A stretch of DNA of 23,664 nucleotides, taken from IMG/VR virus record IMGVR_UViG_2663763326_000004, positions 1-23,664 of that record; one strand, written 5' to 3'. Within the stretch, counting starts at the first letter, position 1. Each line of letters opens with the position of its first letter. Below the pieces are notes generated by a model, which was given only the letters and a program-made list of their open reading frames with translations, was not told where the DNA came from and did no database searches. A program made the position numbers and the translations under genes. This DNA is from a virus. Lineage: Duplodnaviria; Heunggongvirae; Uroviricota; Caudoviricetes. Of this stretch, positions 2,952 to 23,664 are shown in pieces.

Positions 2952-2962
2952 TACGGGATCCA

Positions 2963-3712: not shown

Positions 3713-3744
3713 AGGTAATTTAAAAACGGTTCTGTGAAAGTGAC

Positions 3745-3785
3745 ACGAACCGATCTCCATCGATGTTACTCACCGATCTCCTTCA
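3745..3785. repeat. IS21-family right terminal repeat region
   Basis: Two direct copies of CCGATCTCC (ACCGATCTCCATCGATGTTACTCACCGATCTCC) at the right IS end, inverted relative to the left-end repeats. Confidence 0.55.
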
Positions 3786-4368: not shown

Positions 4369-4847
4369 TATCCCGCCCCCGTCATACCTGTGAATTTAGT
4401 CGCCATACTGCCAGCCTTACCGATGAGCGATTCCGCCTGTTTACCGATATCGCCATAAAGCGCGGCCAGTGATTCGTCAACGCGGGTGAGCGACAGCGTA
4501 AAATCAATTTTTCGGGGTGTGCCGTCTGCAAAGAAAATACTCCCTGTTTCACTCACCCTGCTGATGACATACATGCCGTAAATCATGCCGGTACCATCCA
4601 GCAACGGCCACGCCCGACCTTCCTCTGCCATCAGCCTGAGCGTGGTCATCGTCAGCTTGCCGCCGGTCAGTTCGGGATAAAGCACACCGGCCAGCGTCAT
4701 GTTTTCCTCGCCAACGCCGAGAAACTGGTAGGCATCCCGTTTACCGATACGGGAATTTGACGGCCAGCGATAATCTGATTCACGCTGCATGGTCTGGTGT
4801 GGCAGCGTCTGGCGCATAAAAACAAACATACCTAACGCGAGCATCAT
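4368..4847 (-). CDS. U: Tail protein U (159 aa)
   Basis: Length and position match P2 gpU between T and D. Confidence 0.85.
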   Translation of the reverse strand: MMLALGMFVFMRQTLPHQTMQRESDYRWPSNSRIGKRDAYQFLGVGEENMTLAGVLYPELTGGKLTMTTLRLMAEEGRAWPLLDGTGMIYGMYVISRVSETGSIFFADGTPRKIDFTLSLTRVDESLAALYGDIGKQAESLIGKAGSMATKFTGMTGAG

Positions 4848-4861
4848 TTTTCGTCACCTCC

Positions 4862-7309: not shown

Positions 7310-7729
7310 TCGTGTTTCCGCTTCGCCGGAGCGCCTTTTCGCGCCATGTGATGAGTTCGGTCAGGCTCATGGGATATAGTTCTGATGGCGGCCAGTGAAA
7401 TATCACTGCCACATCCGCCATCAGGTCATCGACCGACAGATTTTTCGGGAACGTTACTGCACCGAGTTCGGCGACAAAAAACCGACCACCTTACCGGCAA
7501 GCGCCACAAGGTCAGGCAGTTCCAGCGCGGCGACTTCCTGCTCGGTCAGCATCGGTGCCGTCATGCGCGGCAGCACCTTAATCAGTGCATCGACTTCGGA
7601 GTTTGCGACCGCAGCCAGACTGACACCGCGCAGCGTCCCGGCATTGGGTTTCATCAGCGTGACCTGTTCGATAACCTGCTCACCACGCTTGACCGGATTG
7701 TCCAGGGTAATCACATTTTCTTTGTTCAT
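7302..7729 (-). CDS. E': Tail assembly chaperone E+E', produced by a programmed -1 ribosomal frameshift
   Basis: A slippery heptamer T-TTT-TTG (plus 7485..7491) lies near the 3' end of E. The -1 frame stays open for about 60 codons and ends at a TAA overlapping the T start (ATGAGTAA). Confidence 0.75.
7454..7729 (-). CDS. E: Tail assembly chaperone E (91 aa, zero-frame product)
   Basis: A 91-aa ORF ending GFLSPNSVQ, which matches P2 gpE length and position. Confidence 0.85.
   Translation of the reverse strand: MNKENVITLDNPVKRGEQVIEQVTLMKPNAGTLRGVSLAAVANSEVDALIKVLPRMTAPMLTEQEVAALELPDLVALAGKVVGFLSPNSVQ
7485..7491 (-). other. Slippery heptamer for the E/E' -1 programmed frameshift
   Basis: Coding-strand sequence G-GTT-TTT-TGT, i.e. 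an X-XXY-YYZ heptamer T-TTT-TTG read as TTT TTG in the zero frame. Confidence 0.7.
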
Positions 7730-7785
7730 GGTTTTCTCACTTCTGAATCAGGGTTAACCGGTCAGCCAGGCTGACCGGATGAAAA

Positions 7786-8304
7786 TCACAGGCCGATATT
7801 GCGGCGGTGTTGCTCCAGCCGGTCGACGCCGTTCACCTTCTCAATCATGTTGATGGTGTCGATTTCGACCAGCTCCTTACCGTCCATCGTCAGCCGGAAA
7901 TAGGTGCAGACCACGGAGATTTTCGACTCGGTGTCTTCTCCCTGTTTACCCTCTCCGGTGTCGATTTCTTTCTGACGTCCACGCATGACCACTTCGACGG
8001 CCACCGTTTCGCCGGTATCGTCACGCTGGTAAGAGCCTGCAAAACGAATCGGCACGGCATCCACGCCGGTTGCGGCGTAAAGCTCCCAGATAACCGAATC
8101 CGGGAAGCCCCCGAGCGACCACTCCATTGACAGCGCATCGTCATCAAGGCCGAGGTCTACCGGTGCGCTGCCGTTCATCCCCGCACCGCGATAGTTTTCG
8201 AGCTTACGGGTCAGTTTTGGCAGCGTGACGGACTTTGCAACGCCCTGATAGCTGTAGCCGTTCAGAAAGACGTTCATTAACTTGAGTTTGCGCGGCATTG
8301 CCAT
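7786..8304 (-). CDS. FII: Tail tube protein FII (172 aa)
   Basis: 172 aa, directly downstream of FI, matching P2 gpFII. Confidence 0.9.
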   Translation of the reverse strand: MAMPRKLKLMNVFLNGYSYQGVAKSVTLPKLTRKLENYRGAGMNGSAPVDLGLDDDALSMEWSLGGFPDSVIWELYAATGVDAVPIRFAGSYQRDDTGETVAVEVVMRGRQKEIDTGEGKQGEDTESKISVVCTYFRLTMDGKELVEIDTINMIEKVNGVDRLEQHRRNIGL

Positions 8305-8316
8305 CGGTCAGGCTCC

Positions 8317-9507
8317 TTAATTGCTGTTAACCGAGGTGACCAGATTTGCCAGGTATTTATCGGTAATACGCTGGCGCAGGGTCAGGTTTTCGAGAGGAGG
8401 CACCGGGGTATAGTCGTAGTCGATATACAGTTTGCCGGCCTTGAGGGTTTCCGCATCGTTGGATTCTTCGCTAAACCAGCAGGTCGCATCCACGATATAG
8501 CCGTTTGTTTTCAGCTCACGGAATTTGGCATTGATGCCGTCAACGATGTCGCGAATCAGCGTTGCGGTGATGGGCTTGTCCACCGCCCACATGTGCGCCT
8601 CAGCCATCGTGTCGGCCAGCACCTGCGCGGTGCGGGTGTAGTTTTCAAAGAGGAACAGCGGGTCATCAGAGCAGGTACGGTTACCCCAGAAGCGGAAACC
8701 GTCACGGCGAATCAGCGTTGTGACACCTGACTCGTTCAGCAGGTCAGCATCGGTGCCGGACTCCTGCAAATCCCAGAATACGGACGCACTGATGCCGGTA
8801 ACACCGTTTACCCCGACGTTGGACAGCGTTTTATGCCAGCCCTGCTCCTGGTCGATTCTGGCACGCAGACCCAGCGCACGGGCGGTGGCATACGCGGTGG
8901 CGGTGGTACTGGTGACCGTATCCCATGCGAGGAAATCCGGCCAGATTACCATCAGCTCACGCTGGCTGAAATTCTGGCGGTAGGCTTTCACCTCGGAAAT
9001 GGTTTTACAGCCCCATGCGCTGATATACCCGAAAGCGCGCAGCTTCTGGCAGACTGATGCCAGTGCAACAGCCACCTCTTTGGTGTCCAGTCCCGGCACA
9101 CCGAGAATACGCGGTTTAACACCGGTTACCGACTCTGCCGCCAGCAGGGCTTTCAGTCCGGTATACTGACCGTTTTCGTCAGTGGTGCCGATGATATTGG
9201 AAACGGTCTGCGCGAGTTTCGTTTCTTCGTCGTCGCCGGTGCCGTCTTCCACACGCACGACAACGGTGACCGGTTTTGACTGGTCAGCGATGGCCTGCAG
9301 CGACGCCGCCAGCGTGCCTTTTTTACCGGCCTTTGCAATTGCGCTCTGCACATTGGTAATCAGCACAGGTTTATTGAGGGGGAAGGTTTCCGCATCCGCA
9401 TCGCTGGCCGTGCAGACCATGCCGACAATGGCAGTGGATACAGTGGAAATGACGCGGGTGCCGTCGTTAATCTCCAGCACCTGCACGCCGTGATGATAGT
9501 CACTCAT
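8317..9507 (-). CDS. FI: Contractile tail sheath protein FI (396 aa)
   Basis: 396 aa starting MSDYHHGVQVLEINDGTRVISTVSTAIVG, with a GGAG ribosome-binding site 8 nt upstream. Matches P2 gpFI. Confidence 0.9.
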   Translation of the reverse strand: MSDYHHGVQVLEINDGTRVISTVSTAIVGMVCTASDADAETFPLNKPVLITNVQSAIAKAGKKGTLAASLQAIADQSKPVTVVVRVEDGTGDDEETKLAQTVSNIIGTTDENGQYTGLKALLAAESVTGVKPRILGVPGLDTKEVAVALASVCQKLRAFGYISAWGCKTISEVKAYRQNFSQRELMVIWPDFLAWDTVTSTTATAYATARALGLRARIDQEQGWHKTLSNVGVNGVTGISASVFWDLQESGTDADLLNESGVTTLIRRDGFRFWGNRTCSDDPLFLFENYTRTAQVLADTMAEAHMWAVDKPITATLIRDIVDGINAKFRELKTNGYIVDATCWFSEESNDAETLKAGKLYIDYDYTPVPPLENLTLRQRITDKYLANLVTSVNSN

Positions 9508-9534
9508 CCGTTTAACTCCGTGGTTAATGGGTGC

Positions 9535-9600
9535 AACTATTTTCTGTTGTGCAGAGCATGAGACGCTATTTGACCTGGCTGGTCAGTGGATGAAACAACA
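9535..9600 (-). promoter_or_regulatory. Candidate late promoter for the FI-FII-E-T-U-D operon (Ogr-dependent, P2 P_F-like)
   Basis: P2 late promoters carry an Ogr dyad (TGT-N12-ACA) centred near -55. Upstream of FI there is a partial match, TGT-ttcatccactga-cCA, and an A/T-rich -10-like AGAAAATAG about 25 nt before the ribosome-binding site. Confidence 0.3.
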
Positions 9601-10081
9601 GATAAAGAAAAGGCGAGCAATCAGCCCGCCTGCCTTGATTTGTACTCTTTCAGTTTCCAACTGACAAATTACGTAACCAAAACTCTGTCAAATCTGACAG
9701 TCTGCTTTGAGCGAAAAACAGGTATTGAGATACATAATAAATCATCTCAATTTTCAACTTTTCTGCCACTTAACATCTTGAGTAGTAAATAGTACAAAAC
9801 TATCTACTGCCGAAGGGCTCTAGGAAGTATGGTTTCTGCACAATAAGACTTATATCGGCTCACGGGGAGCCAAAAGATATTCATTGCCTAGAATTTGCAG
9901 ATGAGGTGGTAATCTGTACTGGGGCGGTACTGCAACAGCTATGTATATTTCCACTGCGGTAATCTGTACCAGCAGGTAGAAGCTGTTATACATCACCGCC
10001 CCTGTAGTGCTAATCCGGAGATAGCACTACTCTCATCAAGGCTTGTTCTTCCATAAACCGCAATAGGTGTTAGTTTTAGCC

Positions 10082-10939
10082 TTAATGTAAAATTAACAAT
10101 TGATTCAGACGCTTATGTAATTTTGTGGTTCTAAATGTATGATGATCGTAACTCATACGCATATAACTATCTATCTCATCCAGACGCATGTTCTTATTTA
10201 CAGATATATCAGTTTCATACATCATTTTTAATATACATGTAAAGTCATGACCATTGCATATAGAAAAATGATCTGGCGACATTAATTCTAATTTACGCAT
10301 TTCATTATATAAATTTTTCGCATTAAAATCCTTATCAGTACGACTCCTGCTAAGCACATGATTTATATATTTGGTTTCATCAACTACAACATCTGTCCTG
10401 TTAATACTTACAAAATTCCTGTAATTCATTCCTTTGAAATTAAGATTGCTATGTGTAAGATAATTGTACCATTTGAGAAGTCCGATTTTATAGCATGCAC
10501 AAAGGATGTTCATCTTTACATCCTGACAGAATATATCGGCCAATTCCCCTTGAATTAATTTTCTATCTGTATGTGACATAATGAATTTATCAACCGCACC
10601 ACCTTTTACTAACATCATTTCAAGGTCATGAGCATCAGTATAAAAAATCCCCTCGTGATTTATTCCGCTTAACTCATCAAAGTCCGCGTCACATACACCA
10701 TACACAGCATTATTACCTGCACGACGTAATTGACTAACAGCCAATATTACTTCACGTTTTCCATTTTCAGGTGATTCATAAATGATTCTATTATCAAGCC
10801 GATATGCATTGAAAAATCGGATATCTGAAATGCCCTCAACCACAATCAATATACAACGTTGATACATTTCATTTCTGAATAAAAGCATCATACTACTCAA
10901 CCAATCATCTTCGCGAACAGCATTGCGTAATGACATCAT
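10082..10939 (-). CDS. DUF4435/TOPRIM-like (OLD-family-type) putative nuclease, AriB-like effector of a PARIS-like system (285 aa)
   Basis: N-terminal ILIVVEGISD (TOPRIM glutamate) and downstream VYGVCDADFDE (DxD metal-binding motif). GC content is very low, and the ATG follows the upstream ATPase stop with no gap (TAA ATG). Confidence 0.7.
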   Translation of the reverse strand: MMSLRNAVREDDWLSSMMLLFRNEMYQRCILIVVEGISDIRFFNAYRLDNRIIYESPENGKREVILAVSQLRRAGNNAVYGVCDADFDELSGINHEGIFYTDAHDLEMMLVKGGAVDKFIMSHTDRKLIQGELADIFCQDVKMNILCACYKIGLLKWYNYLTHSNLNFKGMNYRNFVSINRTDVVVDETKYINHVLSRSRTDKDFNAKNLYNEMRKLELMSPDHFSICNGHDFTCILKMMYETDISVNKNMRLDEIDSYMRMSYDHHTFRTTKLHKRLNQLLILH

Positions 10940-12184
10940 TTACTCGTTTCCTTCTGAAAGCTGTTGGCTTTCATTTCTATTTCTAATCATTTCATATAGA
11001 TCGTATGTTAATTCCCAATTCTTACTAATTACTTGTGGTGAATGAGTAGCAATAATGACCTTTTCATACTTGTTAATCTTTTGTATTTTTTTGAGAGAAT
11101 CCAAGAAAGTTTGTTGCCAGGCGACATGTAATGATATTTCTGGCTCGTCTATAAGAATTACTTTTTGTGAAACAAAATCGAAAATCAAATTAAAAAGAAG
11201 AACTATTTGGTTCTGTTCACCTGATGAAAGCAAATTACGATCAATAACATCGCCATTGTGACTTTTGAAATAAAATCCGTTATCTCTATCAATCATCACT
11301 TTTTTAAAAGCTAAAACCTTTTCTTTCAAAATTGATTCAAATAAATCAATTTTTTGATGTAATGTCTGAAACGGTGACAATTTTCCAAGGGCATCTTCAA
11401 TATATAGATCCAACACACTTAGATATTCATTGCTACTATAAAAACTTGTGCTTTTTTGAGGCATTAGCTCGTTATCAGCCTGAATAAGGCCATAACGCAT
11501 ATAATGTCGACGTTTATCTTGAATACCATTTAAGCGATCTTGAATATTTTCTGATGAAAATCGTTTTGATTGCTCTAAACGCTCAAATAATCGAATAGGA
11601 AATGTAGCGTCTAATTTTTGTGATAATGCAGCGGAATCATCTTGTGCATTTTTCATTAAATATTTTAATTTTCTAGCACATAAGTCAATGACTGTTTCAT
11701 CAACAGCTTTGACTTGTAATCGATCTGCACATATAAAAGATACGTCTTCTTTCGATGTAATATGACTTAACACATCCGAAGATAATGGTTTATCAGTTCG
11801 TAATTTTTGTTTTGGTTTAACATCCCCCCTATGCAAGCTTACATAAAATAACTCTTCCATAATAGATTCATCTGTCTGTAACTTGAGTCTTTCTTCCGTT
11901 CTGTTTCCTGAGCTATTATCCAGATGATTCAATATTAAACCATCTTTATTGGTGTCATGAGTAATTGAAACAGAGCCACCTTGAAAATCAATTTTAATAA
12001 AATCAAAATTAAGTTTACAGAGAGCATTTAATTCATTTGTAAGAATACTATTGATGATTTTAAGAATCATTGTCTTACCATATCCATTTGGACCAGTAAG
12101 CATAGTAATTTCATTGTTATCCAAGGGAATTTCATAATCAAGGAGACCAAATAGTTTTTTTACTTTTAAATGTATCAATTTCAT
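10940..12184 (-). CDS. ABC/SMC-like ATPase (AAA_15/AAA_21 type), AriA-like sensor of a PARIS-like system (414 aa)
   Basis: Walker A GPNGYGKT, an ABC-signature-like LSSGEQ, Walker B VILIDEPE and an H-loop IIATHSP, with a long helical insertion between the nucleotide-binding halves. AT-rich codon usage is unlike the flanking phage genes. Confidence 0.75.
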   Translation of the reverse strand: MKLIHLKVKKLFGLLDYEIPLDNNEITMLTGPNGYGKTMILKIINSILTNELNALCKLNFDFIKIDFQGGSVSITHDTNKDGLILNHLDNSSGNRTEERLKLQTDESIMEELFYVSLHRGDVKPKQKLRTDKPLSSDVLSHITSKEDVSFICADRLQVKAVDETVIDLCARKLKYLMKNAQDDSAALSQKLDATFPIRLFERLEQSKRFSSENIQDRLNGIQDKRRHYMRYGLIQADNELMPQKSTSFYSSNEYLSVLDLYIEDALGKLSPFQTLHQKIDLFESILKEKVLAFKKVMIDRDNGFYFKSHNGDVIDRNLLSSGEQNQIVLLFNLIFDFVSQKVILIDEPEISLHVAWQQTFLDSLKKIQKINKYEKVIIATHSPQVISKNWELTYDLYEMIRNRNESQQLSEGNE

Positions 12185-12199
12185 ATCAACCTCGCAGAC

Positions 12200-12280
12200 G
12201 ATGAATTATAACCATTTATTACATGGCGCATATGAAATGCAATATATCATTGTCATGAGTTGCATTTCAAACATATGCCC
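12200..12280 (-). promoter_or_regulatory. Candidate sigma70 promoter(s) with an embedded inverted-repeat operator, upstream of the ATPase gene
   Basis: On the coding strand, TTGAAA, an 18-nt spacer and TATATT, followed by a second perfect TATAAT about 20 nt before the ATG and a GAGG ribosome-binding site. The inverted repeat GAAATGCAA-N17-TTGCATTTC brackets the first -35 and -10 elements. Confidence 0.4.
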
Positions 12281-13214
12281 CAACATCAATGCTAAATCCG
12301 TGATTAAAATTAATAAACTTCTGGTTTTTGCAAATAATTTCTTGCCCTAATAGTTTGGAAATACCTCTTTTAAATTTATAGTGAATAATATTACGCCCAT
12401 TTAGTTCTCTCTTTGCAGAACTGAACATGTCGGGAGCTACTGTGTGGAGAAACACTGAAACGATCGTTAGTGAATATTTGCACACTGGTGATAGTACTAA
12501 ACAGCCCTTTGGTCATGTCCGAAAAATAGTGACTCGTACAACATGATCGATGTGATAGCATTTATGACAGTGAAACATAACAATCACCTTTGAACATTTT
12601 CCATACGTGCATTATACCTATTAAATCTAAACAAAACAAATAGATATAAAATATTCATCCGCGTATCTTCATGCTCTCATATACCACATACGGGAGCCTT
12701 AACATCAAGTACTAAGCACGTCGTGAAGCTGTTTCCGTTAAGACGACTTTGCACTACTTGACTGATTAGCCATGCCTGCTTGTCTATCACACATTTAAAG
12801 TTTTTCATCGCTAACGTAGTTAGTCCATTCCCTTGAATGGCGTTTTACCAGTCTATATATGACAAATATCGTACTTTTTCCACATTCAGTCCAATTCATT
12901 CACCGCTCCCGATTCACCTACAACACCCTCTCAACGACGTTCTCTGTACCTGTAATACCGGCGCAAATTGCGTCGAAAATGTCGTTCTGCATCGCATAAA
13001 CCTTCATCAGATTTGGCCTACAATGCAGCGAATAGTCTGAAATTAAAAACCGATGATGATGGACTGTACTGTTCATGCAAGTCTGGTCGCTCTGTGCCTC
13101 ATCAAGGAATGAATAATGATCTTGGCGACGTCTACTCTTGGCACAGAGCGGACTGTCAGATTAGTTTTTACTCTGTGCCATAGATGAGTAATCTCACACC
13201 AGATCTAATACAAT

Positions 13215-13793
13215 TTATTGCGGCATTTCCGGCCATTCTATATCCGGAGCATCTTCCGGCTGAACGCGATTCAGTAACACACGGTATTTTTTCCAGTGTG
13301 TCAGGCTTAACTTTTCTTCCTCGGTAGCCATATCTAAATCGACAGCATCCTGCAGCGTGGCAATGATTTCACCTGCATATGCAATCTGCTCTTTCTTCTG
13401 AGACTCCGCCGCTCTGACAAGCGCATCACGCTCTGCATTCTCATCATTCACCCACGCATTTCCGTTCCATTTCTGATAATCCCCCTCCGGGGAAATGGCT
13501 GTCACGTCTGGAGGTAATGCGCCAAGTTCAGAAATATAAATGGCTGCTCCCGTTTTCGTTTCGTAGACAGTCTTTCCGCGATGATCTTCCATCAACTCCC
13601 ATTTCATTTCATCTGCATTGAAAACGGCTGCATAACCAGCAGGAATATCAGGTGGTGCAATATCTGTACTGTTTGCAGGCAGGCCAGTATACGGCGGAAT
13701 ATATGCATCACTTTCGCCAATAAACTCATTGGTTCCATCAAGTAAATTGAAAACGCGGATAGTTTGTGCTTCTGCACTCATTCTGAAAGCCAT
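13215..13793 (-). CDS. G: Tail fiber assembly protein G (192 aa)
   Basis: Directly downstream of H with its ATG overlapping the H stop (TAATG). Size and position match P2 gpG. Confidence 0.8.
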
Positions 13794-16411
13794 TATGCAA
13801 GCCTCACAATATAGTTAAATGCGATGTTTTTGACGGTGTTTTCGGTATTACCAGTAGCATTTACGGTAATGGAATGCCCGTGTGAGCCAATAGCAACAGT
13901 GTGTGAATGTGCACCAATACCAACAGTATGGTTATGTGCTCCAATGTCGACTGTATGTGCATGATTGCCTGATGAACTTGTAGTCGTAGCACCTTTATCA
14001 CTTCGCGGAACACCATAATCTGCACCGCCTGATTGCACGCTCACAGCAAAACCGACGGTATGTGTATGATTGCCAGAAGTATTGGTTGATTTTGTGCCGT
14101 GGTTAAACGTACTGACTGTTTTTGTCCCGTAATCAAATGAACTGGTCGTTTTCGTTCCTAAGTCCGTATTTGACGCACTGGCGCTGTGAGTATGCGATTT
14201 AATCCCGTCCTGTTCCTGTGACAATACGGCACGCCCACTGGCGGGTTTGCCCTTGATTGTCCAGCCGCGCATATCAGGAATAACACCAGAAGGATAGGCA
14301 ATAGCCAGTTTCGGATATGCAGCCTTATCAAACGTCTGCCCCTGCATGATCGCATAGCCTGCAGGTGGTGTATCTGATGGCCACGGCAGCGGAACACCTG
14401 GCGGAAACGCTTCAATATCTTTCGTCCCGTCAAAGGTTACGCCGTTAATTGTCCTTGCCGTTTTCAGCTTTGTTGCTGTAGCAGCATTGCCGGACAGTTC
14501 GCCTGAAAGACCGGCGCTGAAGGTTTGTTTCGCCGCCCATGTCTGGGCTTCGTCAATAATTGGCACACGTCTTGTGGTGATCGTGCGACTTCCCGGATTT
14601 CCTGAAATACGCACCATAAAAAAGCGGTAGTTCGCTTTACTTACAGTGCTGCGCCATACATGCATTGAGCGCCCCGCACCGGAATCATCACTCGGACCAA
14701 CTGAGATGTTTATCAGGTTGCCATCAATGACGCCCCAGTCCATACCTTCGGGAATGTTGGTCATGTTATCAAGCCGAACGGTTATCAGACTGCCCGGCAC
14801 AAAGTCGTAGGTCTGCCAGTCCAGGCTGGAGAGTTTTGCCACTGCACCGCCGATACCCAGATTCAGGGGAAGTGAATACGAGGTGTAGACTTCCCGCCAT
14901 TCGCTCCACGAGCTGCCGGTATAGACGCGCTCAAACGTGCGACCTTTAAGGGTTGCACCTGTTCCGGCAGTTGTATAACGCTGCCATACGTTAACACCAT
15001 CAAAGCGCCTCAACACTTCCAGAATCCCGAGGACTGTCACGCCGTTTCCGTCCAGTATTGGACCGTTGGTCGCTTTACCTGTAACGCTGTAAATACCTGG
15101 TGAAGTCACCTCATTCAAATCCCCGTCGTAATAACGACTCTCTGACTGATGACCGACTCTTAACCACGGTTCCCACTGTGGATTTGATGCATCCCAGCTT
15201 GCCGCAAGGCAGCGGACATACATATTTCCACGGCGAGTGGTATAACGTTGCGTTCTTCCATAATTCCCGCCTTCGAGGATCTCAAGCATCCCCTGAGCAA
15301 AGCCGCCTTCCTCTGGATAATTGCGTTCATATGAAGCTATAGCCGAGCTACTGTTACGCCATAAACCAAGATGCTCGGCGGCTCCAAGCGTATTCAGGTC
15401 TATAGTCGTACTCAAAGGGCGGGTAGCAGATTGAGTGTGACGCCATACGCCCCACGGACCATCAGTGCCATTCCACTTATTGGCGAGTTTACGCATGTAA
15501 ACATTGCCGTCTCTCGTGGTAAAGCGTTGCGTACCTGCAAAATTGCCGGCAGCAAAAACCTCAAGCACACCGACAGCATTATCTTCCGGGAAATTTTTCT
15601 CCAGTGTTGCGTTAGTTGAGGTAGCTTTAGACCAGATCCCCAGATAAGCCTTAACGGGACCAAATGTATTCAGGTCGGCATCAACCGGCATTTCGCCATT
15701 GTTTTTCATAAACGTCAGACTGGTAACGCCAACATTGTCCAGAAAAGCTGATTTATCCTGGATATCTGCACCATTCTGATTTTTCGCCAGACGTGAATTT
15801 GCGTTGTCATTTGCTGCCTTGACCGCTTTTGGCGTTGCCGCCAATGACTCACTGGTGCTGTTTGTTGCACTGCTTAACTGAGTAAAACCTTTTTCTGTCA
15901 GCGTGGCGTCAGGATGGCGGCGGGACTGCTCATGTTCTGCGATTTTGTCATCGACGTAATCCTGCGTCGCCATCACTGTGCTGGCATCAATACTCAGCTC
16001 AACGGACGCCACGTTACTGACAATAATAACCATGCGGCAGGTCTGCGCACGCCCGGAGCCTTCAGCGAGTTCAGGCTTATAGCTTTCTGCCATGTTGGCG
16101 ACCGCAATCAGTGTTCCGGCATCGTCATACAGACCAAGCTCACGCATCCAGAAGCCGCCCACTTCGGGCGGTACAACCAGTTCAGCCACGATATAGTTTT
16201 TATTCTTATTATCCACGCTGACTTTATTCAGAGCGTGACGCCAGACCTCATGCACCAGTTTCGTCTGACCGGCATCCGGCACCGGCAATTTGCCATTACC
16301 GTCACCCACGGCCATTGCAGACAGGTTTACTTTTTTCCCGCCGGGGACAGTGGCGGCTGCCAGCTTCGCGGCTCCGGCAGTAGTGATAACGGTTTTAAAT
16401 TTCGTGCTCAT
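13793..16411 (-). CDS. H: Tail fiber protein H (872 aa)
   Basis: Conserved P2-type N-terminus [30 protein letters not shown]. The central region has three tandem repeats of about 60-70 aa and the C-terminus has repeated HxH motifs (GNHTHT, GNHAHT, AHNHT, AHSHT, SHGHS). Confidence 0.9.
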
Positions 16412-16421
16412 TGTTTCTCAC

Positions 16422-16952
16422 TTATCCGGGATAAACAGTAATAACATCACCATCACAGACCACACCGCCTGTATACAGATAGCCGGGAATGTCCTGGATA
16501 ATGTTCAGGCCGATAAGGTGGCGACTTGCGGGTTTGGCATCGGCAATCAGCCGTTCCATTTCCAGATACATTTCCTCTGTGATACCGCTTTCCAGCACAC
16601 CGATATCAAGACGAAAGGTTCCGGCCGGGTCGTTTGTCTCCCACCATTCCTTTACGTTAATGAGATAGCCGAGCGGCTCCACCACACGCCGGATTGCGCC
16701 GACAGTGCCTTTATGACAGTGGATGAAATAGGCATCGCGGATAACGGCGCGTTTTGTCGCTTCCGGCCACTTTTCATCCCACCTGTCGACCGAAAACGCC
16801 CACGCCAGCCACGGCAGCAGATTTGCCGGGCAGGTGTCCGGGTTCCACAGCTCACGAATACTGACCGGCGTTTTTTCAATTTCCGCACAGGCTTTTGCGG
16901 CGGCGACCTCAAGCGGTGATGAGCCGGTCGGCAGCAGGCGCGAATCACTCAT
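16422..16952 (-). CDS. I: Baseplate assembly protein I (176 aa)
   Basis: 176 aa between J and H, matching P2 gpI. Confidence 0.85.
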   Translation of the reverse strand: MSDSRLLPTGSSPLEVAAAKACAEIEKTPVSIRELWNPDTCPANLLPWLAWAFSVDRWDEKWPEATKRAVIRDAYFIHCHKGTVGAIRRVVEPLGYLINVKEWWETNDPAGTFRLDIGVLESGITEEMYLEMERLIADAKPASRHLIGLNIIQDIPGYLYTGGVVCDGDVITVYPG

Positions 16953-17853
16953 CCGAGCCTCCGGTCACGACGCGGTATTCGGTACAGAAAGACGCCTGCG
17001 TATTGTTGAGCACGATGTCGGCCAGCGGTGCAGCCAGTTCGACACGCTGCACGCCTTCCACATGCAAAGCGGCATAAATGGCAGACAGACGGATGTCGCG
17101 CCCCAGCCGGTGCTGTGCCGTGATATACGCTTCCAGTTTTTTCACGGCGGCAGCGCGGATGGGTTCGCTTTCGGGACCAGGGTAAAGGTAAAGCGTGGCG
17201 TTTATCTGGTATTCAACAATGGCGGCAGACTGCACGGTCACGCGGTCGGCCACCGGCCTGACGTCCTCGCCATTCAGGGCGTTACGCACCACCGCCAGCA
17301 GGTCTTCGGATGCGACGCCGTTATTTTCACGTGACAGCACAGAGATGGTGACGCAGGCCGGAGAAGGACTGGTGACAGAGATATCCGCGACACGCCCGTC
17401 GGCACTGCGACCATGATACTGATAGGCTCCCACCGACCCGGCGACGCTTAAACCTTCAAACGCCTGCTGAATACGCAGACGATAATCGGTGTCAGATTCC
17501 ATCACTGCCGGTGTCGGCGGGATGGTCGAATCATCTGCCGGGGTGATAATCAGGCGCGTGGTGTTGTAATTGGCACCAATCACATCAAGGTCGTTACCGG
17601 CGGCACAGGCCAGCATCACCGCCCGTGCGGCCTCATTCACACGCTGACGCCAGATAAGCTCACGATAAGCATTTTCCTCCAGCAGTTTGACGAGAGGCTC
17701 GGATTCCAGCGTCAGGGTACGGGCGACCGCCTCCTGCTGGTCTTCCGGGTAAAGGGAAATCAGTGTCGCCTTGCGTTCAGCGAGAATGGTTTCAAAGTCC
17801 AGCTCCTCGACCACATCCGGTGCGGGTAGCTGGTTCAGGTCGATAATCGGCAT
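16945..17853 (-). CDS. J: Baseplate assembly protein J (302 aa)
   Basis: 302 aa, overlapping the start of I by 8 nt, matching P2 gpJ. Confidence 0.85.
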   Translation of the reverse strand: MPIIDLNQLPAPDVVEELDFETILAERKATLISLYPEDQQEAVARTLTLESEPLVKLLEENAYRELIWRQRVNEAARAVMLACAAGNDLDVIGANYNTTRLIITPADDSTIPPTPAVMESDTDYRLRIQQAFEGLSVAGSVGAYQYHGRSADGRVADISVTSPSPACVTISVLSRENNGVASEDLLAVVRNALNGEDVRPVADRVTVQSAAIVEYQINATLYLYPGPESEPIRAAAVKKLEAYITAQHRLGRDIRLSAIYAALHVEGVQRVELAAPLADIVLNNTQASFCTEYRVVTGGSDE

Positions 17854-17857
17854 GGTT

Positions 17858-18205
17858 TCAACTCACAGGGATGGTTAACGAAAGTGGCTGGCCGGTGTCG
17901 TTGTGCTGGCCGGTTAGCGTAACTGTCATTCGCCCGTCAAAGCTGCGCGCCGTGGTGACGGATGACAGGGTGACGCGGGGTTCCCATTTCAGCACCGCCA
18001 TGTAACAGGCGACCTTAATCTGCAACTCAAGCGCCGGGGTCTGCGGCTGGTCAATCATTGATGCCAGCAATGAGCCGTAATCACGACGCATCACCCGTGA
18101 GCCGACCGGCGTGCGCAGGATATCGCCGATACTCTGGCTGATATGCTCAAGGTCAGTGACAGTCAGGCCATCACTGCGATTCATTCCGAGATAACGTGCT
18201 GTCAT
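17858..18205 (-). CDS. W: Baseplate assembly protein W (115 aa)
   Basis: The ORF 17858..18298 contains MTARYLGMNRSDGLTVTDLEHISQSIGDILRTPVG starting at the internal ATG at 18205. The upstream 31 codons overlap V and are not part of W. Confidence 0.85.
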   Translation of the reverse strand: MTARYLGMNRSDGLTVTDLEHISQSIGDILRTPVGSRVMRRDYGSLLASMIDQPQTPALELQIKVACYMAVLKWEPRVTLSSVTTARSFDGRMTVTLTGQHNDTGQPLSLTIPVS

Positions 18206-18836
18206 AGAGGACTCCCGGTTGTGCCGCCGCTGTCGCCGGGTGTTTATGGGTATGCAGTACCTTACCGTTTGATGAGAGTTCACCGCCGGTGTGTTCAATG
18301 TTGCCGCGCATCGTCCCGCCCTTCTGCACTTCCAGCGTGCCGGTAGTCAGCTTGTTTGTGCAGACCACCTCCGGCGTGTCCAGGGTGACACGGGTTGACG
18401 CTTTCACCGTGACCACCGGTACCGTGGCAGTAACAGAATCAGAAGCCGTCACGCTGGCCGTTTTAATTCCGCTTACCGTGAGTGCACTGGTTTCGGGTTC
18501 ATACTCAATCACCGCCCCGTCAGAGAAACGGATATGCAGGGCATCAGCCGACGCAGACGGCGCAGGGTTATCGCCGGAATAAATCCCCGGCAGAACGAAC
18601 GCCGTGTCGAGTTCACCGCCCACGGCCAGAATCAGCACCTGTTCCCCCACGGAAGGTGCCCACCATGTGCGCGAACGACCGGCGCGCTGGGTCAGCCACT
18701 GCAGCCAGTCGGTGCACATGCCGCCGGTCTGCACACGGCAGCGACCGGCGTTAAGGTCGGTTTCGACGACAAGGCCGGTGCGGATCATGTTGCGCAGTGC
18801 GCGCGCGAGTTCCTGAATATTTGCGAGAGTGTTCAT
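18171..18836 (-). CDS. V: Baseplate spike/assembly protein V with an altered, extended C-terminus
   Basis: Starts MNTLANIQELARALRNMIRTGLVVETDLNAGRCRVQTGG. After ...KVLHTHKHP the reading frame differs from the frame that would end ...GDSGGTTGSPL at a stop overlapping the W start. A 1-nt deletion in a G-run near plus 18236..18240 explains this. Confidence 0.8.
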   Translation of the reverse strand: MNTLANIQELARALRNMIRTGLVVETDLNAGRCRVQTGGMCTDWLQWLTQRAGRSRTWWAPSVGEQVLILAVGGELDTAFVLPGIYSGDNPAPSASADALHIRFSDGAVIEYEPETSALTVSGIKTASVTASDSVTATVPVVTVKASTRVTLDTPEVVCTNKLTTGTLEVQKGGTMRGNIEHTGGELSSNGKVLHTHKHPATAAAQPGVLYDSTLSRNESQ

Positions 18837-18902
18837 AACGGGAAGGATGCCGCCGGGTCATACCGGCGGCAATGTGACGATGAGGTGTCGGGAATGGCAC
18901 AA

Positions 18903-19354
18903 CTAACGGTCGAGGTGAGCCAGGATAATCTCTTCAATCATCTGCACATCCTCACCGGTAAAGCCGAGCAGAGGACGCGCCGGATAATCAATTTTCTTAC
19001 CGTCTTTCCGGGTTTCTTCCGACAGACCGAACTGATGCACACTGGCGATTTTCGGCGACTTCCCGCCGTAAAATTCCATTGATGCCTGCTCCGGGCTGGC
19101 GCGGATATGCAAAAAACGACTGGTGATAAGTTTCGCAAACATTTTTCGCTTAACGCGACGGTCTTTTTTCTGGCGCTCTGCTGCTGGCGTGGCGCATAGG
19201 GTGTGCCGTCCGGGGCTTTCTGTGTCATCACCCGACGCTGCTGACTCTGCCGCAGGCGTTTCGCCAGTTCGGCACTCAGTCGCCGACGCCCTGACGGTGA
19301 CAGCGACTCAATAAGTCCGGTCAGCCGGTCTTCAAAACGCTTAAACTCATTCAT
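18903..19354 (-). pseudogene. S: Tail completion protein S, frameshifted
   Basis: The N-terminal part (MNEFKRFEDRLTGLIESLSPSGRRRL...RQQQSARKKT) is in ORF 18938..19354 and the C-terminal part (MFAKLITSRFLHIRASPEQ...AHLDR) is in the overlapping ORF 18903..19142 in a different frame. The span is 452 nt, one short of the 453 nt needed for a 150-aa protein, which implies a single 1-nt deletion near plus 19155..19160. Confidence 0.75.
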
Positions 19355-19814
19355 CCCACTTGCTCACCAGTTCGCCATTGATATACAGCTCCATCGGGCG
19401 GGTAACCGGCTCCGGCGGCGGAGGTTCCGGGATATTCTTCACATGCAGCGCGCCGTCCACCTCACTGACCAGCGTGCGCTCGGTCAGCATCAGGCTGATG
19501 CTGATATCAAAGCTGCTGTCATTGTTGATGTCTGCATAAAACGTGAAGCCCTTTTTCTGGCCTGCGTCGGTGGTCATGATGTCGGGCTGATTTTCCCGCA
19601 GCCACGCCAGCACCGGCACGATGAGCAGGTCAAAATCACCGGTAAAGTCGGTCACAATGACATTGAGCGTGTAACGCTTTTCGAATGACAACGACGCCGC
19701 CAGTGTGGAGGCAATACTCCCGTTATCCACGAATATCCGCAGCATATCGGGGTTAGTTTTCAGCACCGTGACGGCATCAGTCAGCGCCCTGCGCAGGCTG
19801 TCGGGTTTGAGCAT
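19347..19814 (-). CDS. R: Tail completion protein R (155 aa)
   Basis: 155 aa starting MLKPDSLRRALTDAVTVLKTNPDMLRIFVDNGSIAS, between lysC and S. Confidence 0.85.
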   Translation of the reverse strand: MLKPDSLRRALTDAVTVLKTNPDMLRIFVDNGSIASTLAASLSFEKRYTLNVIVTDFTGDFDLLIVPVLAWLRENQPDIMTTDAGQKKGFTFYADINNDSSFDISISLMLTERTLVSEVDGALHVKNIPEPPPPEPVTRPMELYINGELVSKWDE

Positions 19815-20067
19815 CGTTTTCGTCCTGACAGTGTTTAATCATTTTTACCTGGCTGGCACAGCGTGCCAGCGCGTTCTCAAGTTGCCGGATATCGGCACTT
19901 AAATCGCCGTTCGTCTCCGGGTCACTGCCCGGTATCGGGCAAAGACTCACTTTCGGGCAGGCGTTGTGGACAATCACTGGCGTCGGTGCAGGCGGGGCGC
20001 TGGTGCAACCGGCGCACAGCATCAGGCAGGTCAGCACCGTACCAGCGGCGAAAATCTTCGTTTTCAT
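19777..20067 (-). CDS. lysC: Rz1-like outer-membrane spanin lipoprotein LysC (96 aa), embedded in the lysB/R overlap
   Basis: An internal start within ORF 19777..20184 gives MKTKIFAAGTVLTCLMLCAGC, a signal peptide with a lipobox (LCAGC), followed by a Pro-rich segment. It is in a different frame from lysB and runs into R. Confidence 0.7.
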   Translation of the reverse strand: MKTKIFAAGTVLTCLMLCAGCTSAPPAPTPVIVHNACPKVSLCPIPGSDPETNGDLSADIRQLENALARCASQVKMIKHCQDENDAQTRQPAQGAD

Positions 20068-20347
20068 TAAGTAACCTCGTGATGGTTTTCTCGCGCTGTG
20101 CTTCACGCTTCGCGGCGTTCTCCAGTTCCTGACGCAGTGCCACCTGCGCCAGCTCGTTTTTGTCTGCCCTGGTGAGGGCAACATGAAGCTGATTTTTCAG
20201 CATGGTGATGGTCGCCTGCTGCCCACTGGCGACGTTGTTCGCCCTGTCCAGCGAGGCGCGCAGGCTGGCGTTTTCATGCTTCACCAGAAACAGCGCCGCC
20301 ACCGCCAGTGATAACAACACAACCAGCACAATCATCAGCTTTGACAT
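19922..20347 (-). CDS. lysB: Rz-like inner-membrane spanin LysB (141 aa)
   Basis: N-terminal transmembrane helix (MSKLMIVLVVLLSLAVAALFLV) followed by a coiled-coil periplasmic domain. Confidence 0.85.
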   Translation of the reverse strand: MSKLMIVLVVLLSLAVAALFLVKHENASLRASLDRANNVASGQQATITMLKNQLHVALTRADKNELAQVALRQELENAAKREAQREKTITRLLNENEDFRRWYGADLPDAVRRLHQRPACTDASDCPQRLPESESLPDTGQ

Positions 20348-20759
20348 AATTCCCGCCCCTCAAGACGCTGACGACAGGCTTTACGTATCAGCCGGAAAAA
20401 CAGCGATGCCACGAGATAAATCAGCGCGGTAAAAATCCACCCGGCGGCAACCAGCGAGATAAACGTCGCCACCATCACCACCAGAGCTGCTGCCCGTCTG
20501 TGCCACGGCACCGGCTGCAAAAACAGCGACGTGACAATCTTCACGGCCAGCGATTCCGGCGGCAGCCCCGCCCGTAGCGTTCCAGTACATACTCTGTGGC
20601 ATACACGCCGACACCGCCGGCAACCACACAGATAACCGTCGCCAGAATCGCCCAGGCGGCGACAAAATTGACGGCCACGCTCTGCGGGTAAATCAGGGAC
20701 AGTGCCAGCATCAGCGCCAGCGACACGTTCAGCATCAGTGAAAGGGATAATTTCTTCAT
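20335..20759 (-). pseudogene. lysA: Lysis regulator/membrane protein LysA, frameshifted
   Basis: The N-terminal hydrophobic part (MKKLSLSLMLNVSLALMLALSLIYPQS...) is in ORF 20541..20759 and the C-terminal hydrophobic part (...PVPWHRRAAALVVMVATFISLVAAGWIF...) is in the frame of ORF 20335..20931. The span is 425 nt, one short of 426 nt for 141 aa, with the deletion in a G-run near plus 20566..20570. Confidence 0.7.
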
Positions 20760-20773
20760 GGTGTTTACTCCGT

Positions 20774-21271
20774 TTAAGCCGGTACGCCGCCAGCGGTACG
20801 CCAGACGGTGACCAGTTTTTCCAGTGAATGCTCACGCTGACCGTAACCGGCTCCCGGCAGGGACGCCCAGATATTGCGACAGCGTGAAATGGCGCGCTCA
20901 ATGCGTCCCGCCCGGATGTCATCCAGTGCACCGCGTTCGCGGATCAACTGAATGGCGAGTCTGTCCTGTGACAACGGACTGAAATCCGGCAGGGCAAGCT
21001 GTTTGCGGTAATGCGGCCAGAACAGGTAAAGCTGCTGATAGCGACCGGAGGCCGTGGATTTTTCACCACGACGGTTAAACACCTTCGCCGGTCGGCCATG
21101 CGCGAACGGGTGGTCACTGTAGTCGGTGAAAATTTCCGGCTTTCCGTCCACTCCGGTGACTATCACGTCATAGCCCCGGTTTTTCGTCAGCGGATGGTTC
21201 GCCGTCCCTTCGGACACAGCCAGCATGTCGAGAAAGGCCGCGATATTCTGATGCGTGTTAATTACCGGCAT
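20774..21271 (-). CDS. K: Endolysin K (lysozyme-like, 165 aa)
   Basis: Internal start MPVINTHQNIAAFLDMLAVSEGTANHPLTKNRGYDVIVTG within ORF 20774..21316. Matches P2 gpK. Confidence 0.85.
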   Translation of the reverse strand: MPVINTHQNIAAFLDMLAVSEGTANHPLTKNRGYDVIVTGVDGKPEIFTDYSDHPFAHGRPAKVFNRRGEKSTASGRYQQLYLFWPHYRKQLALPDFSPLSQDRLAIQLIRERGALDDIRAGRIERAISRCRNIWASLPGAGYGQREHSLEKLVTVWRTAGGVPA

Positions 21272-21551
21272 TACGGTTTCCCCTGCCCTTAAAACGGCGC
21301 TGAATGGCAATCTCAATCACCTGATAACCGGCGATACCCAGCATGGAGCCGATGCCGCACACCGCAGGCAGTGACAGGTCAGGAAACTGCACCAGAACAA
21401 CACCGGCAACCATCGAGACAAAACCACCGAGCAACATGCGCCCGATAAACAGACGCGGGGTGATGGGTTCACCACCGGCAAGCACCTTGCCGACAACAAT
21501 CAGCACCCCAATCATGAAAAGCGACAGGACGCTTTTTTCTTCTGCTGTCAT
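21258..21551 (-). CDS. Y: Holin Y, with a probable C-terminal frameshift
   Basis: Hydrophobic membrane protein starting MTAEEKSVLSLFMIGVLIVVGKVLAGG. It reads 97 aa here, against about 93 aa expected. Adding one G to the run near plus 21279..21282 would end it ...GRGKP at a TAA overlapping the K start (TAATG). Confidence 0.75.
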   Translation of the reverse strand: MTAEEKSVLSLFMIGVLIVVGKVLAGGEPITPRLFIGRMLLGGFVSMVAGVVLVQFPDLSLPAVCGIGSMLGIAGYQVIEIAIQRRFKGRGNRNAGN

Positions 21552-21554
21552 GCG

Positions 21555-21758
21555 TTACTCCCACAGATTGACAGTTTCAGCCACGGGCGCGGTCTGAACG
21601 TCGGGCAGTTCGACGGCGGTGCCGTGCGGCAGCACCGCACCCAGTTCAGCCAGTCCCGGATTTGCGGCGAGCACAGTCTCGACCACGCCCTCAGTGCGCC
21701 CGTAATACCGGACACAAATGGCGTCGAGCGTGTCGCCCTGTAGCGCAAAGGTCTTCAT
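21555..21758 (-). CDS. X: Tail protein X (67 aa)
   Basis: Internal start MKTFALQGDTLDAICVRYYGRTEGVVETVLAANPGL within ORF 21555..21827. Confidence 0.85.
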   Translation of the reverse strand: MKTFALQGDTLDAICVRYYGRTEGVVETVLAANPGLAELGAVLPHGTAVELPDVQTAPVAETVNLWE

Positions 21759-22266
21759 CAGATTTGACTCACGATGCAGCGTGGCTTGTCCTGGATGCGC
21801 GCCACTGCCCAGCGCATATCCCGCCACAGTTCATCAATGGTGCTGTCAATGCTGTCGGCCTTCTTGTCGCCTTTCGCACTGGCATCCACGCCGCGATAAC
21901 GCTCATAAAGCGACGCGGTCGCCATCGCACACACGGCGCGCTCGTAGTAAAAAACTTTGATACTTTCACCGTCGATGTCGTCCGCCGGAACGTCCGCCAG
22001 ACGCGTAAAACCGGCGGCAATTTTCTGTTCGCGGTACTCGTACAGCTCCGCATTTGTTTCCGCCATGCCTGACTTGATGGCCTCACGCAGACGGGCGGGG
22101 CGACGGTCTGCTCAAGGCGCATACGTTCCCGGACGCGCTTCGGGTCGATATCGGGAAAAAAGAACGTGTTTTTAATCACCGGCTCGTCGCCTGCCGGTTG
22201 CGGGATGACCACCGTACCCTCACCGGACACGGGAGCCTCCTTTCGCGGAATAATCAGCGTCATCAT
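21758..22266 (-). pseudogene. L: Head completion protein L, frameshifted
   Basis: The N-terminal part (MMTLIIPRKEAPVSGEGTVVIPQPAGDEPVIKNTFFFPDIDPKRVRERMRLEQTVAP) is in one frame and the rest (MAETNAELYEYREQKIAAGFTRLADVP...) is in ORF 21758..22066. The span is 509 nt, one short of 510 nt for 169 aa, with the deletion near plus 22093..22100. Confidence 0.75.
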
Positions 22267-22363
22267 GACTACCTCTGAAAAGTCGGGCGGTGGACGCCGT
22301 GCAGTGTCAGGTGATTCCACCTCACTGACCGGCGTGCCGCCCTGGCGCGGGCGCATTCGGTTG

Positions 22364-23096
22364 TTAACTGGCTTTCTTTTCGGGCGTCCACGTTTTGCCG
22401 GTGTCCACGCTCCGGGTCTTACGCGGGGTACGGGTGCCGCTTTTGGCTGCGGCTCCGGCTTCGTTTCAGCTCCCGCTCAGTCGTTCAATCTCTTTTTGAC
22501 GCCTGCCTGACAGTCGAGCTGTGTCGCACGTTGCAGATGCGCCAGCGCCCTGCGGCATCACCAGCGTCACGCAGAAACAGACCGGTGATTTTGTGCAGCT
22601 TTGCGCGCACTTCATCAGGCATGTCAGCTGTGGCGGTCAGTTCAAGGGTGTCCGTCAGCAGGCGGGGATCCACAGACTCACCGCAGCGTGGGCGCGCATG
22701 GCCGCGAGCGCGACCTCCTCGGTGAACATGTACGGCGGGGTACGGCGGTGTTTACCCGGCATGGTCAGACCGTACTTCAGGGCATAACGGGCAATCTCCA
22801 GCGCACCGCAATATCGCCGGTATCCAGACGCCACAGCATGACCGTCATCAGAATGTCATCCTGTGCGCCTTTGCCCTGCTCCAGCACGCCGTTCACCCAC
22901 GGCAACCAGAACGGCAGCAGTTCGCGCTTTTTCGCGGCCTTCAGCTCTTTTGAATAAATCGCTTTCAGTGTGCGCTGGTCTGCGGCCAGCTTGACCAGCA
23001 TCTGCTCATAGACAGTTGCATGTCGCAGCGGCGGCTTCCCGCTGCGCGGTCATCGCTGCCGAGACCGCATCATGTGGCGCTGTGCGGGACTCGTCA
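22364..23096 (-). pseudogene. M: Terminase small (endonuclease) subunit M, multiply frameshifted
   Basis: Recognisable segments (MTSPAQRHMM; MLVKLAADQRTLKAIYSKELKAAKKRELLPFWLPWVNGVL; PYMFTEEVALAAMRAHAA; LLTDTLELTATADMPDEVRAKLHKITGLFLRD) lie in different frames. At least four 1-nt deletions in G-runs are placed near plus 22548, 22682, 22805 and 23065. The end coordinate is approximate. Confidence 0.65.
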
Positions 23097-23125
23097 TCGG
23101 TTACGCTCCCGGCTCTGCGGTCGCC

Positions 23126-23664
23126 TTAGCCGTGTGTGGAGAAGTCACCGACCTTAATTTTTTCCACCAGACAACCGGCGGCGTAGTCTTCCACCACGTA
23201 ATCAATGTTCATTGACTCGTAGTTCTCCACGCGATCAAGTTTCGGGTTTTCCTCAATCACGCGGCGATGGCTGTCATCCATGTAGTAGATGGACAGGTTT
23301 TCCAGCTTCGTGATGAGCATCGCATCCCCGGGAAGTACGGAACACGTACCGCCGGCAGATTACCGATGCGTTTCTGGCTGATGATGACGTCAGCGGCCAG
23401 CATTTCGCTGTTGTCCTGCTCCTTGTTGACGATGGGGAAATACTTGTCTGCCAGTAGCTGACGTCCCACAATCACCACAAGGTCAGGGTCTTCCTGATAC
23501 CACGGCTCAATCAGGTTGTTGGTCGCATCCATCACCAGTGCATCAAGGCTGGCATAATCACCGCCCTTGCCCACGCGGATAACCTCAGAGGTGGTGTGGC
23601 CTTCCTCGTCAGTGACCTTGCTCATCACGCGCGCCGGGGCTTCATTGCGGTATTTCTGCAGCCG
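23126..23664 (-). pseudogene. N: Major capsid protein N, 3' portion (gene continues beyond the window), frameshifted
   Basis: ORF 23257..23628 (...GRQLLADKYFPIVNKEQDNSEMLAADVIISQKRIGNLPAVRVPYFPG) and ORF 23126..23320 (MLITKLENLSIYYMDDSHRRVIEENPKLDRVENYESMNIDYVVEDYAAGCLVEKIKVGDFS) are consecutive parts of one protein in different frames. The shift is at a G-run near plus 23325..23331. Confidence 0.7.

Follow-up and report, generated by a model that had tools for sequence, protein, structure and literature searches.

Frameshifts clustered at one end of a P2-like prophage record are very probably assembly errors rather than gene decay

The stretch of DNA analysed here (the window, 23,664 nt) is a P2-like (Peduovirus) prophage adjoining pflB in ST131-type E. 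coli. It matches 95 P2-like phage records at ~97% identity over 6.2 kb and keeps the P2 gene order, ogr-D-U-T-E-FII-FI ... G-H-I-J-W-V-S-R-lysB-lysA-K-Y-X-L-M-N, as annotated in L-413C and PhiR44_1; no Rfam family matched anywhere in the window. Late gene D is split by an ISEc12 element (Table 1). The closest relative of the window is the same prophage in E. coli ST131 strain 751 (NZ_CP103562.1, 3234942-3258621), which occupies the same position after pflB and shares with the window both the AriA/AriB-like cargo and, at 100% identity, the ISEc12 insertion in D; D is intact in strain S65EC. The two prophages are identical over 23,663 nt except for 21 events, which affect V, S, lysA, Y, L, M, N and the L-M spacer. 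All seven of these genes are annotated as intact in strain 751, whereas in the window each appears broken. T, H, FI, J, I, W, R, lysB, K and X match the intact annotated genes of strain 751 at every base, and the first-pass annotation had rightly called all of them but X, which it did not list, intact.

Table 1. Features of the window and sites at which it departs from the strain 751 prophage.
Feature	Position	Strand	Gene or ORF	Detail
Control stretch	1..18236			18,236 bases identical to strain 751; 62 G/C runs of at least 4, 0 contracted
ISEc12 (IS21 family) in late gene D	1218..3794	plus	istA 1410-2951, istB 2966-3712	~9 bp duplication
V, 1-nt deletion G4->G3	18237 (run 18238..18240)	minus	gene 18202-18836	codon 200/211
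S, 1-nt deletion CC->C	19158 (19159..19159)	minus	gene 18903-19354	codon 66/150
lysA, 1-nt deletion C5->C4	20565 (run 20566..20569)	minus	gene 20335-20759	codon 65/141
Y holin, C run C5->C4	21279 (run 21280..21283)	minus	gene 21271-21551; ORF as read 21258-21551	codon 91/93
L, 1-nt deletion G5->G4	22096 (run 22097..22100)	minus	gene 21758-22266	codon 57/169
L-M spacer, three non-coding events	22298..22351			GG->G at 22299 (event 22298); CA/AC swap 22318-22319; G4->G3 at 22349-22351 (event 22348)
M, small terminase subunit, 11 events	22364..23097	minus		247 aa in relatives
N, major capsid protein, 3' part	23101..23664	minus		window ends inside gene

Over the 23,663 aligned nt, the 21 differences from strain 751 comprise one CA/AC swap and 20 indels: two single-base insertions and 18 deletion events, of which one removes 2 nt; ordinary substitutions number 0 in 23,663 nt. 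All 21 lie within 18237-23327. Deletions outnumber insertions 18:2 (P = 4e-4), and 17 of the 18 fall in runs of two or more identical bases, the other, at 23327, being a lone G flanked by C's. Affected runs are 1-6 nt long: two are T runs (T5->T4 and T6->T5) and seven are only GG or CC doublets. The ten sites in the first-pass annotation all exist to within ~3 nt (18237, 19158, 20565, 21279, 22096, 22547, 22682, 22807, 23064 and 23327), and 11 of the 21 events had escaped it (22298, 22348, the swap at 22318-22319, 22376, 22435, 22462, 22477, 22492, 23029, 22405 and 23133), so that M, credited with four sites, in fact has 11. Its description of single-nucleotide deletions in G/C runs does not fit every event: there are also the two T runs, the seven mere doublets, the lone G, the 2-nt deletion, the two insertions and the swap. 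Nor is there always a G run on the coding strand; the strand of the runs is mixed.

To ask how far each change is shared, we searched 5,426 complete E. coli genomes by allele-specific megablast; ~1,570 of them carry the region, and the positive control worked. The V, S and lysA alleles were each found in 0 of the 5,426. The L allele was found in one, strain E302, a divergent and visibly error-rich assembly. The V deletion replaces the last 12 aa and lengthens the ORF to 221 aa; neither this 221-aa product, nor the N-terminal 138-aa product of S, nor the frameshifted product of L has a match among ~15 billion public proteins, and the same holds for 8 of the 10 frameshift-derived ORF products overall. 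S, lysA and L each span one nucleotide less than expected, as had been noticed from the sequence alone (452 nt rather than 453, 425 rather than 426 and 509 rather than 510). A 79-aa S fragment present in many assemblies with fragmented genes was considered as a shared S frameshift and rejected: it is an ORF from an internal ATG, and none of the assemblies that carry it has the CC->C allele of the window.

The events become dense in M. Ten are deletions, at 22376 (T5->T4), 22435, 22462, 22477, 22492 (T6->T5), 22547, 22682, 22807, 23029 (2 nt, G4->G2) and 23064, and one is an inserted C at 22405; the net loss of 10 nt splits the frame into ORFs of 59-74 aa. An apparent grouping of these events into frame-restoring triplets of -1 shifts was dismissed: any series of -1 events would show it, and the sequence between the shifts is out of frame and contains stops. 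In N, a T is inserted at 23133 (codon 348) and the lone G is lost at 23327 (codon 283). A further mismatch to the reference falls on the final base, 23664, read either as G versus A or as an AGCC tandem contraction; it suggests that the window ends at a contig end.

Very little of this dense cluster is found elsewhere. Its doublet deletions, the insertions, the swap and the change at 23327 occur in none of the 5,426 complete genomes, no complete genome attains 99% identity over 21900-23664, and a 53-mer spanning three window-specific deletions had no match in viral, species-representative genome or metagenome collections. Only three homopolymer sites of the cluster recur, each in 2 to ~5 genomes. 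In M these are the two T-run changes alone (22376 and 22492), seen in few genomes and in noisy assemblies; in the spacer, 2 other genomes also have the G3 form at 22349-22351, one of them S65EC, in its second P2-like copy.

If the changes were lesions of a lineage, then related strains should share them. Three independent complete genomes, of strains 751 (USA), S65EC (Australia) and 463 (Taiwan), agree with one another at 21/21 sites, and the window alone deviates, so the check for sharing by related strains that the first-pass annotation proposed finds none of the 21 changes in any of the three. Real divergence in this clade takes another form: strain 463 has a patch of 29 substitutions with 0 indels. 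Among strains, run length varies only in Y and three further runs, and there very rarely; the recurring sites (Y and a few homopolymers) are found in unrelated or noisy genomes, not in the closest relatives.

Strain E302 was also considered as a lineage with common lesions. It differs from strain 751 by 324 substitutions and holds a different P2-like phage; its deletion set is its own and includes deletions at CCWGG sites, and the region stands at the start of the E302 record. E302 and the window coincide at only 3-4 homopolymers. We therefore reject shared ancestry and take the coincidences as recurrent error. Scattered gene fragmentation of the same kind is present in several public P2-like prophage assemblies (for example L004, L007, L014-L018, L020 and E302).

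Y stands apart from the other genes. Its C4 form encodes a holin of 97 aa, with a 14-nt overlap into the start of K. A public protein look-up finds the exact 97-aa protein on 265 contigs; six otherwise intact prophages carry it (L005, L006, L008, L009, L010 and L013), and so do 6 complete genomes, whose annotation lists an intact holin. The 97-aa form is thus a genuine, widespread natural allele, and for that reason Y is not a pseudogene, contrary to its initial listing among the broken genes. The closest relatives of the window lack the C4 form and all carry C5. The change in the window may stem from the same error process as the others, coincidentally reproducing a real natural allele; because it matches such an allele, it may be either an error or that allele itself. 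It is a reminder that one apparent "frameshift" can be a legitimate natural allele.

The 21 events are far from evenly spread along the window. With uniform placement, the probability that all would fall in the last 5,428 of 23,663 nt is 3.7e-14. Event density rises toward the window end from 0 to 1.0 to 13.8 per kb and peaks at 40 per kb, with ten events inside 250 nt (Poisson P ~8e-8 per such stretch). Of the G/C runs of at least 4, 0/62 are contracted on the left versus 7/22 on the right (Fisher P = 3.8e-5). Events strike the spacer (3) and genes alike, 11 of them in M alone, and since three sit in the L-M spacer there is no link to gene function.

Collectively, these comparisons make it very probable that the frameshifts in V, S, lysA, L, M and N, and perhaps that in Y, reflect faulty base calling or consensus building in the source assembly and not mutation. 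The changes are private to the window, are deletion-biased, run-linked indels without substitutions, and ignore coding potential. We infer this by comparison rather than by direct observation. A poorly supported stretch near a contig end would have been called with bases missing, possibly because coverage was low or because the sequence came from read tails or an unpolished segment of long reads; losses would fall mostly in short G/C runs and doublets, with occasional extra bases and one swapped pair. Errors in long-read assemblies are mostly false deletions at homopolymers of 2-8 nt, occasionally of a non-repeated base (PMC12007338). The window resembles such draft or long-read bacterial assemblies in its deletion-biased 1-2 nt indels at runs of 2-6 nt, in the occasional loss of a non-repeated base, and in that the events fragment genes, occur in a single assembly and are unaccompanied by substitutions. 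It differs from them in that the events are restricted to one 5.1-kb stretch and many are at mere doublets, which speaks for coverage or quality failing locally (contig end, read tails) and against a systematic bias across the genome.

The first-pass annotation had likewise favoured artefact over decay, a preference borne out by changes that are private, substitution-free, deletion-biased, present in the spacer and denser toward the window end. It had also thought confinement to the right-hand 5.5 kb odd for an artefact. This is no argument against assembly error, because such error is non-uniform and tracks local coverage and read quality. The pattern is deletion-biased, homopolymer-linked and position-dependent, and its confinement to one end is what would follow from a local fall in coverage or quality. 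We also considered an unpolished repeat, in which a second P2-like prophage causes multi-mapping of short reads. This fails to explain the boundary, because the second P2-like copy of S65EC is equally similar (~97%) on both sides of it, across the whole of 13-23.6 kb, clean and affected parts alike.

Might some or all of the changes still be real? A mixed origin, in which the dense L-M-N cluster is artefact and at least one isolated homopolymer contraction arose by true slippage in a dead prophage, is unlikely; Y would be the likeliest case, with V, lysA or L conceivable. The isolated events lie in runs of 4-5, which of the classes present slip most readily; with D disrupted, selection is already relaxed; and Y C4 is bona fide in intact prophages assembled from short reads. 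Yet the closest relatives all have Y C5 and the longer runs at the other sites, none of the 5,426 complete genomes has the V or lysA allele, and the isolated events form the low-density tail (~1 per kb) of the same gradient, while 62 comparable runs in the 18.2 kb to the left are untouched. A history in which a cryptic prophage gathered all 21 changes as true mutations under relaxed selection is very improbable. Decay is possible in principle, since the ISEc12 insertion in D has left the prophage dead and its late genes under relaxed selection; annotations of other complete genomes, for example E302, include frameshifted genes in P2-like prophages, and the homopolymer alleles at L, the second spacer G run, M 22376 and M 22492 occur in other genomes. 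In E. coli mutation accumulation, indels are roughly a tenth as frequent as point mutations. Against this expectation the window has 0 substitutions and 20 indels, P ~1e-6 even if half of neutral changes were indels. Moreover, relatives lack the changes; neutral change does not place ten events in 250 nt and none in 18.2 kb of prophage DNA that is just as free of selection; and GG or CC doublets are not slippage hotspots.

Break-associated stress-induced mutagenesis produces -1 frameshifts in short G/C runs, clustered over a few kb. By analogy, the -1 bias and few-kb clustering in the window might reflect one episode of slippage-prone synthesis, such as Pol IV-dependent double-strand break repair, in which case the 21 changes would record break-associated mutagenesis occurring naturally in a dead prophage. 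We consider this the least credible reading of all: 40 events per kb is orders of magnitude beyond reported in vivo rates, the indels come without accompanying substitutions, the adjacent-base swap and terminal mismatch are signatures of base calling and not of a polymerase, and independent noisy assemblies err at the same homopolymers. Were the changes real, they would amount to an extraordinary local mutation cluster, for which there is no support here. Two functional explanations were also rejected. Programmed ribosomal frameshifting, as in P2 E/E', needs one defined slippery site per gene, but M has 11 sites; homologues in P2-like phages and in the ~1,570 E. coli genomes read straight through, and the alignment to related phages that had been suggested as a check agrees, except that the 97-aa form of Y is native elsewhere. 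Phase-variable homopolymer tracts are typically at least 7 nt long with length polymorphism; the affected runs are 1-6 nt, seven of them doublets, and polymorphism is rare.

With assembly error as the preferred reading, there is no case for treating the seven apparent pseudogenes as prophage decay, for calling the phage defective on their account or for entering them in protein databases. The case illustrates that a single near-identical reference can tell error from mutation, through a pure-indel set on a zero-substitution background. The prophage is genuinely defective through ISEc12 in D, not through the frameshifts. It is like decayed cryptic P2 remnants of E. coli in having a P2-type late-gene cluster from which no virions are possible, here with D split by an insertion sequence. 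In those remnants lesions are shared by the lineage and accompanied by substitutions and larger deletions, whereas the frameshifts of the window are private, indel-only and clustered.

Across positions 17500-23664 the window shares roughly 97% identity with some 95 phage records of the P2-like (Peduovirus) type, and the late genes lie on the minus strand in P2 order (ogr, D, U, T, E/E', FII, FI, a cargo slot, G, H, I, J, W, V, S, R, lysC/lysB, lysA, K, Y, X, L, M and part of N). At its left edge the window falls one base past the pflB stop codon, a start that looks like a gene-edge cut, as in a provirus call, and it ends within N. Its final base, 23664, mismatches the reference (G for A, or an AGCC-AGCC tandem that has contracted), and this suggests that the window stops at a true contig end.

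Alignment to two P2-like phages over 7.7 kb opened 20 gaps and left the window about 17 nt short; substitutions occurred at an even rate. The decisive reference was E. coli O25b:H4-ST131 strain 751 (NZ_CP103562.1), in which 3234942-3258621 aligns to window 1-23663 with zero ordinary substitutions. The two sequences differ only by 18 deletion events, which remove 19 nt in total, by two insertions of 1 nt and by a swap of adjacent bases (CA/AC). The first-pass annotation had named ten frameshift sites in V, S, lysA, Y, L, M and N; every one was confirmed, none more than about 3 nt from its stated position, and the spans of S, lysA and L each lack one nucleotide, as claimed, but the count was incomplete, with eleven further events bringing the total to 21. 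Of the eleven, the L-M spacer has the swap and two deletions, M has six deletion events (two in T runs, and one a 2-nt loss) and one insertion, and N has the other insertion, so that M holds 11 events rather than the four proposed. The deletions fall in G/C runs of 5 (three events), 4 (four) or 3 (one), in GG or CC doublets (seven), in T runs of 5 or 6 (two) and at a lone G between C's (one).

The events are confined to one end. Bases 1-18,236 show zero differences from strain 751; density is then about 1.0 per kb up to 22,095, rises to 13.8 per kb over 22,096-23,327 and peaks at 40 per kb within 22,298-22,547. Under uniformity, all 21 events would fall within the last 5,428 nt with P = 3.7e-14. 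G/C runs of at least 4 are contracted in 0/62 cases in the left part versus 7/22 in the right (Fisher P = 3.8e-5), there are 18 deletions for 2 insertions (P = 4e-4), and the non-coding spacer contains 3 of the 21 events.

Whether related strains share the frameshifts, a check proposed with the original call, was addressed using three independent complete genomes with the same prophage clade. Strains 751 (USA, blood), S65EC (Australia, urine) and 463 (Taiwan, sputum) have the same sequence as each other at every one of the 21 sites, lacking the window's state at each, and the window is the only outlier. We also ran megablast against 5,426 complete E. coli genomes, using query pieces whose 28-nt seed fits the window allele only; the Y allele, as positive control, gave matches. 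In this set the V, S and lysA alleles occur in 0 genomes and the L allele in one, E302. Recurrence within the dense cluster is limited to three homopolymer sites, each seen in 2 to about 5 genomes (G4 to G3 in the spacer, T5 to T4 and T6 to T5 in M), and the doublet deletions, insertions, swap and 23327 deletion have no occurrence there. Of ten ORF products that result from the frameshifts, eight are missing from about 15 billion public proteins.

The E302 locus (L024, NZ_AP022362.1 1-10285) is a distinct P2-like phage with 324 substitutions, lying right where its record begins and carrying scattered deletions of its own, including losses at CCWGG (Dcm) sites. We therefore rejected common descent of the shared alleles in favor of recurrent error at the same runs. 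Gene fragmentation of the window's kind is found in many other public P2-like prophage assemblies. In L024 and the loci L004, L007, L014-L018 and L020, from 'complete' or long-contig public assemblies, the prophages are full of 1-2 nt deletions, and RefSeq labels the affected genes frameshifted pseudogenes; these are likely uncorrected long-read errors, not decay.

If the changes were real mutations in a dead prophage, a plausible reading in principle given that this prophage was already dead, then substitutions should accompany them; with none, P is about 1e-6 even if half of neutral changes are indels. The changes are also not common to relatives and are extremely clustered, and all three points contradict genuine decay. 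It is very unlikely that slippage-prone repair synthesis really struck in a burst, in view of how dense the events are, the swapped bases and the mismatch at the last base. Genuine divergence in this clade looks different from the window's indel set: strain 463 (L026) carries 29 substitutions and no indels over J, W and V (equivalent to window 17353-18420) in a prophage otherwise identical. This patch resembles a short tract of recombination, perhaps donated by the second P2-like prophage in 463's own genome.

Because the differences are pure-indel, deletion-biased, run-associated, private, indifferent to coding, position-dependent and free of substitutions, they bear an error signature; on these sequence comparisons, the cluster is very probably an artefact and not a real biological feature. 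The lean toward artefact in the first-pass annotation is thus borne out. The window's indels also fit what has been published on assembly errors that fragment genes, chiefly false deletions at 2-8 nt homopolymers and occasionally loss of a non-repeated base (PMC12007338). A weakly supported stretch would give base-calling or consensus errors and hence apparent frameshifts, and a contig-end or read-tail effect may lie behind it. Confinement to the right end, previously considered odd for a uniform artefact, is expected, since assembly accuracy tracks local depth and read quality. Poor polishing caused by a repeat with a second P2-like prophage was rejected: the second copy is about 97% identical throughout, affected part included.

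Features of the prophage with their positions in the window
Feature	Position	Strand	Details
ISEc12 (IS21 family; istA, istB) in late gene D	1218-3794		about 9 bp duplication
AAA-ATPase (414 aa) and DUF4435 (285 aa) gene pair	10082-12184	minus	PADLOC models; flanks 9508-10081 and 12185-13214
Y holin, 97-aa form	21258-21551	minus	C4 instead of C5 near 3' end, three codons ahead of normal stop; 14-nt overlap with K

The Y holin had been counted among the broken genes, yet it is not a pseudogene, as the 97-aa form occurs in intact prophages and is annotated as intact. The exact protein is found in 265 contigs, six complete genomes carry it with a RefSeq annotation as an intact holin, and it occurs in P2-like prophages with all other genes intact, draft-genome and metagenome assemblies included (loci L005, L006, L008, L009, L010 and L013). 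It is a widespread natural allele. The window's nearest relatives have C5, so its own C5 to C4 change is probably part of the same error process; that Y, and perhaps another isolated site, is a real change within an otherwise erroneous set is unlikely.

The prophage's genuine inactivating lesion is ISEc12 in D, an insertion found besides the window only in strain 751, at 100% identity. In S65EC, D is intact and the prophage has no ISEc12. In strain 463 the element sits elsewhere in this prophage, at the T/E junction. Since the sites differ and S65EC has none, ISEc12 struck the prophage of sister strains independently.

The cargo slot between FI and G sits at a known variable hotspot of P2 (PMC9122126) and has a GC content of 35%, versus 52-60% in phage genes. 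As its gene pair matches the AriA (E = 1.9e-25) and AriB (E = 2.6e-21) models, it is a predicted PARIS-type anti-phage system. Between the AriA-like gene and G, 12185-13214 is about 1 kb of AT-rich sequence with no ORF above 72 aa and no Rfam match. A 120-bp piece of it, in 12908-13030, shares about 74% identity, on the opposite strand, with the junction of genes L and X in 186-type phages and may be what is left of an old recombination joint.
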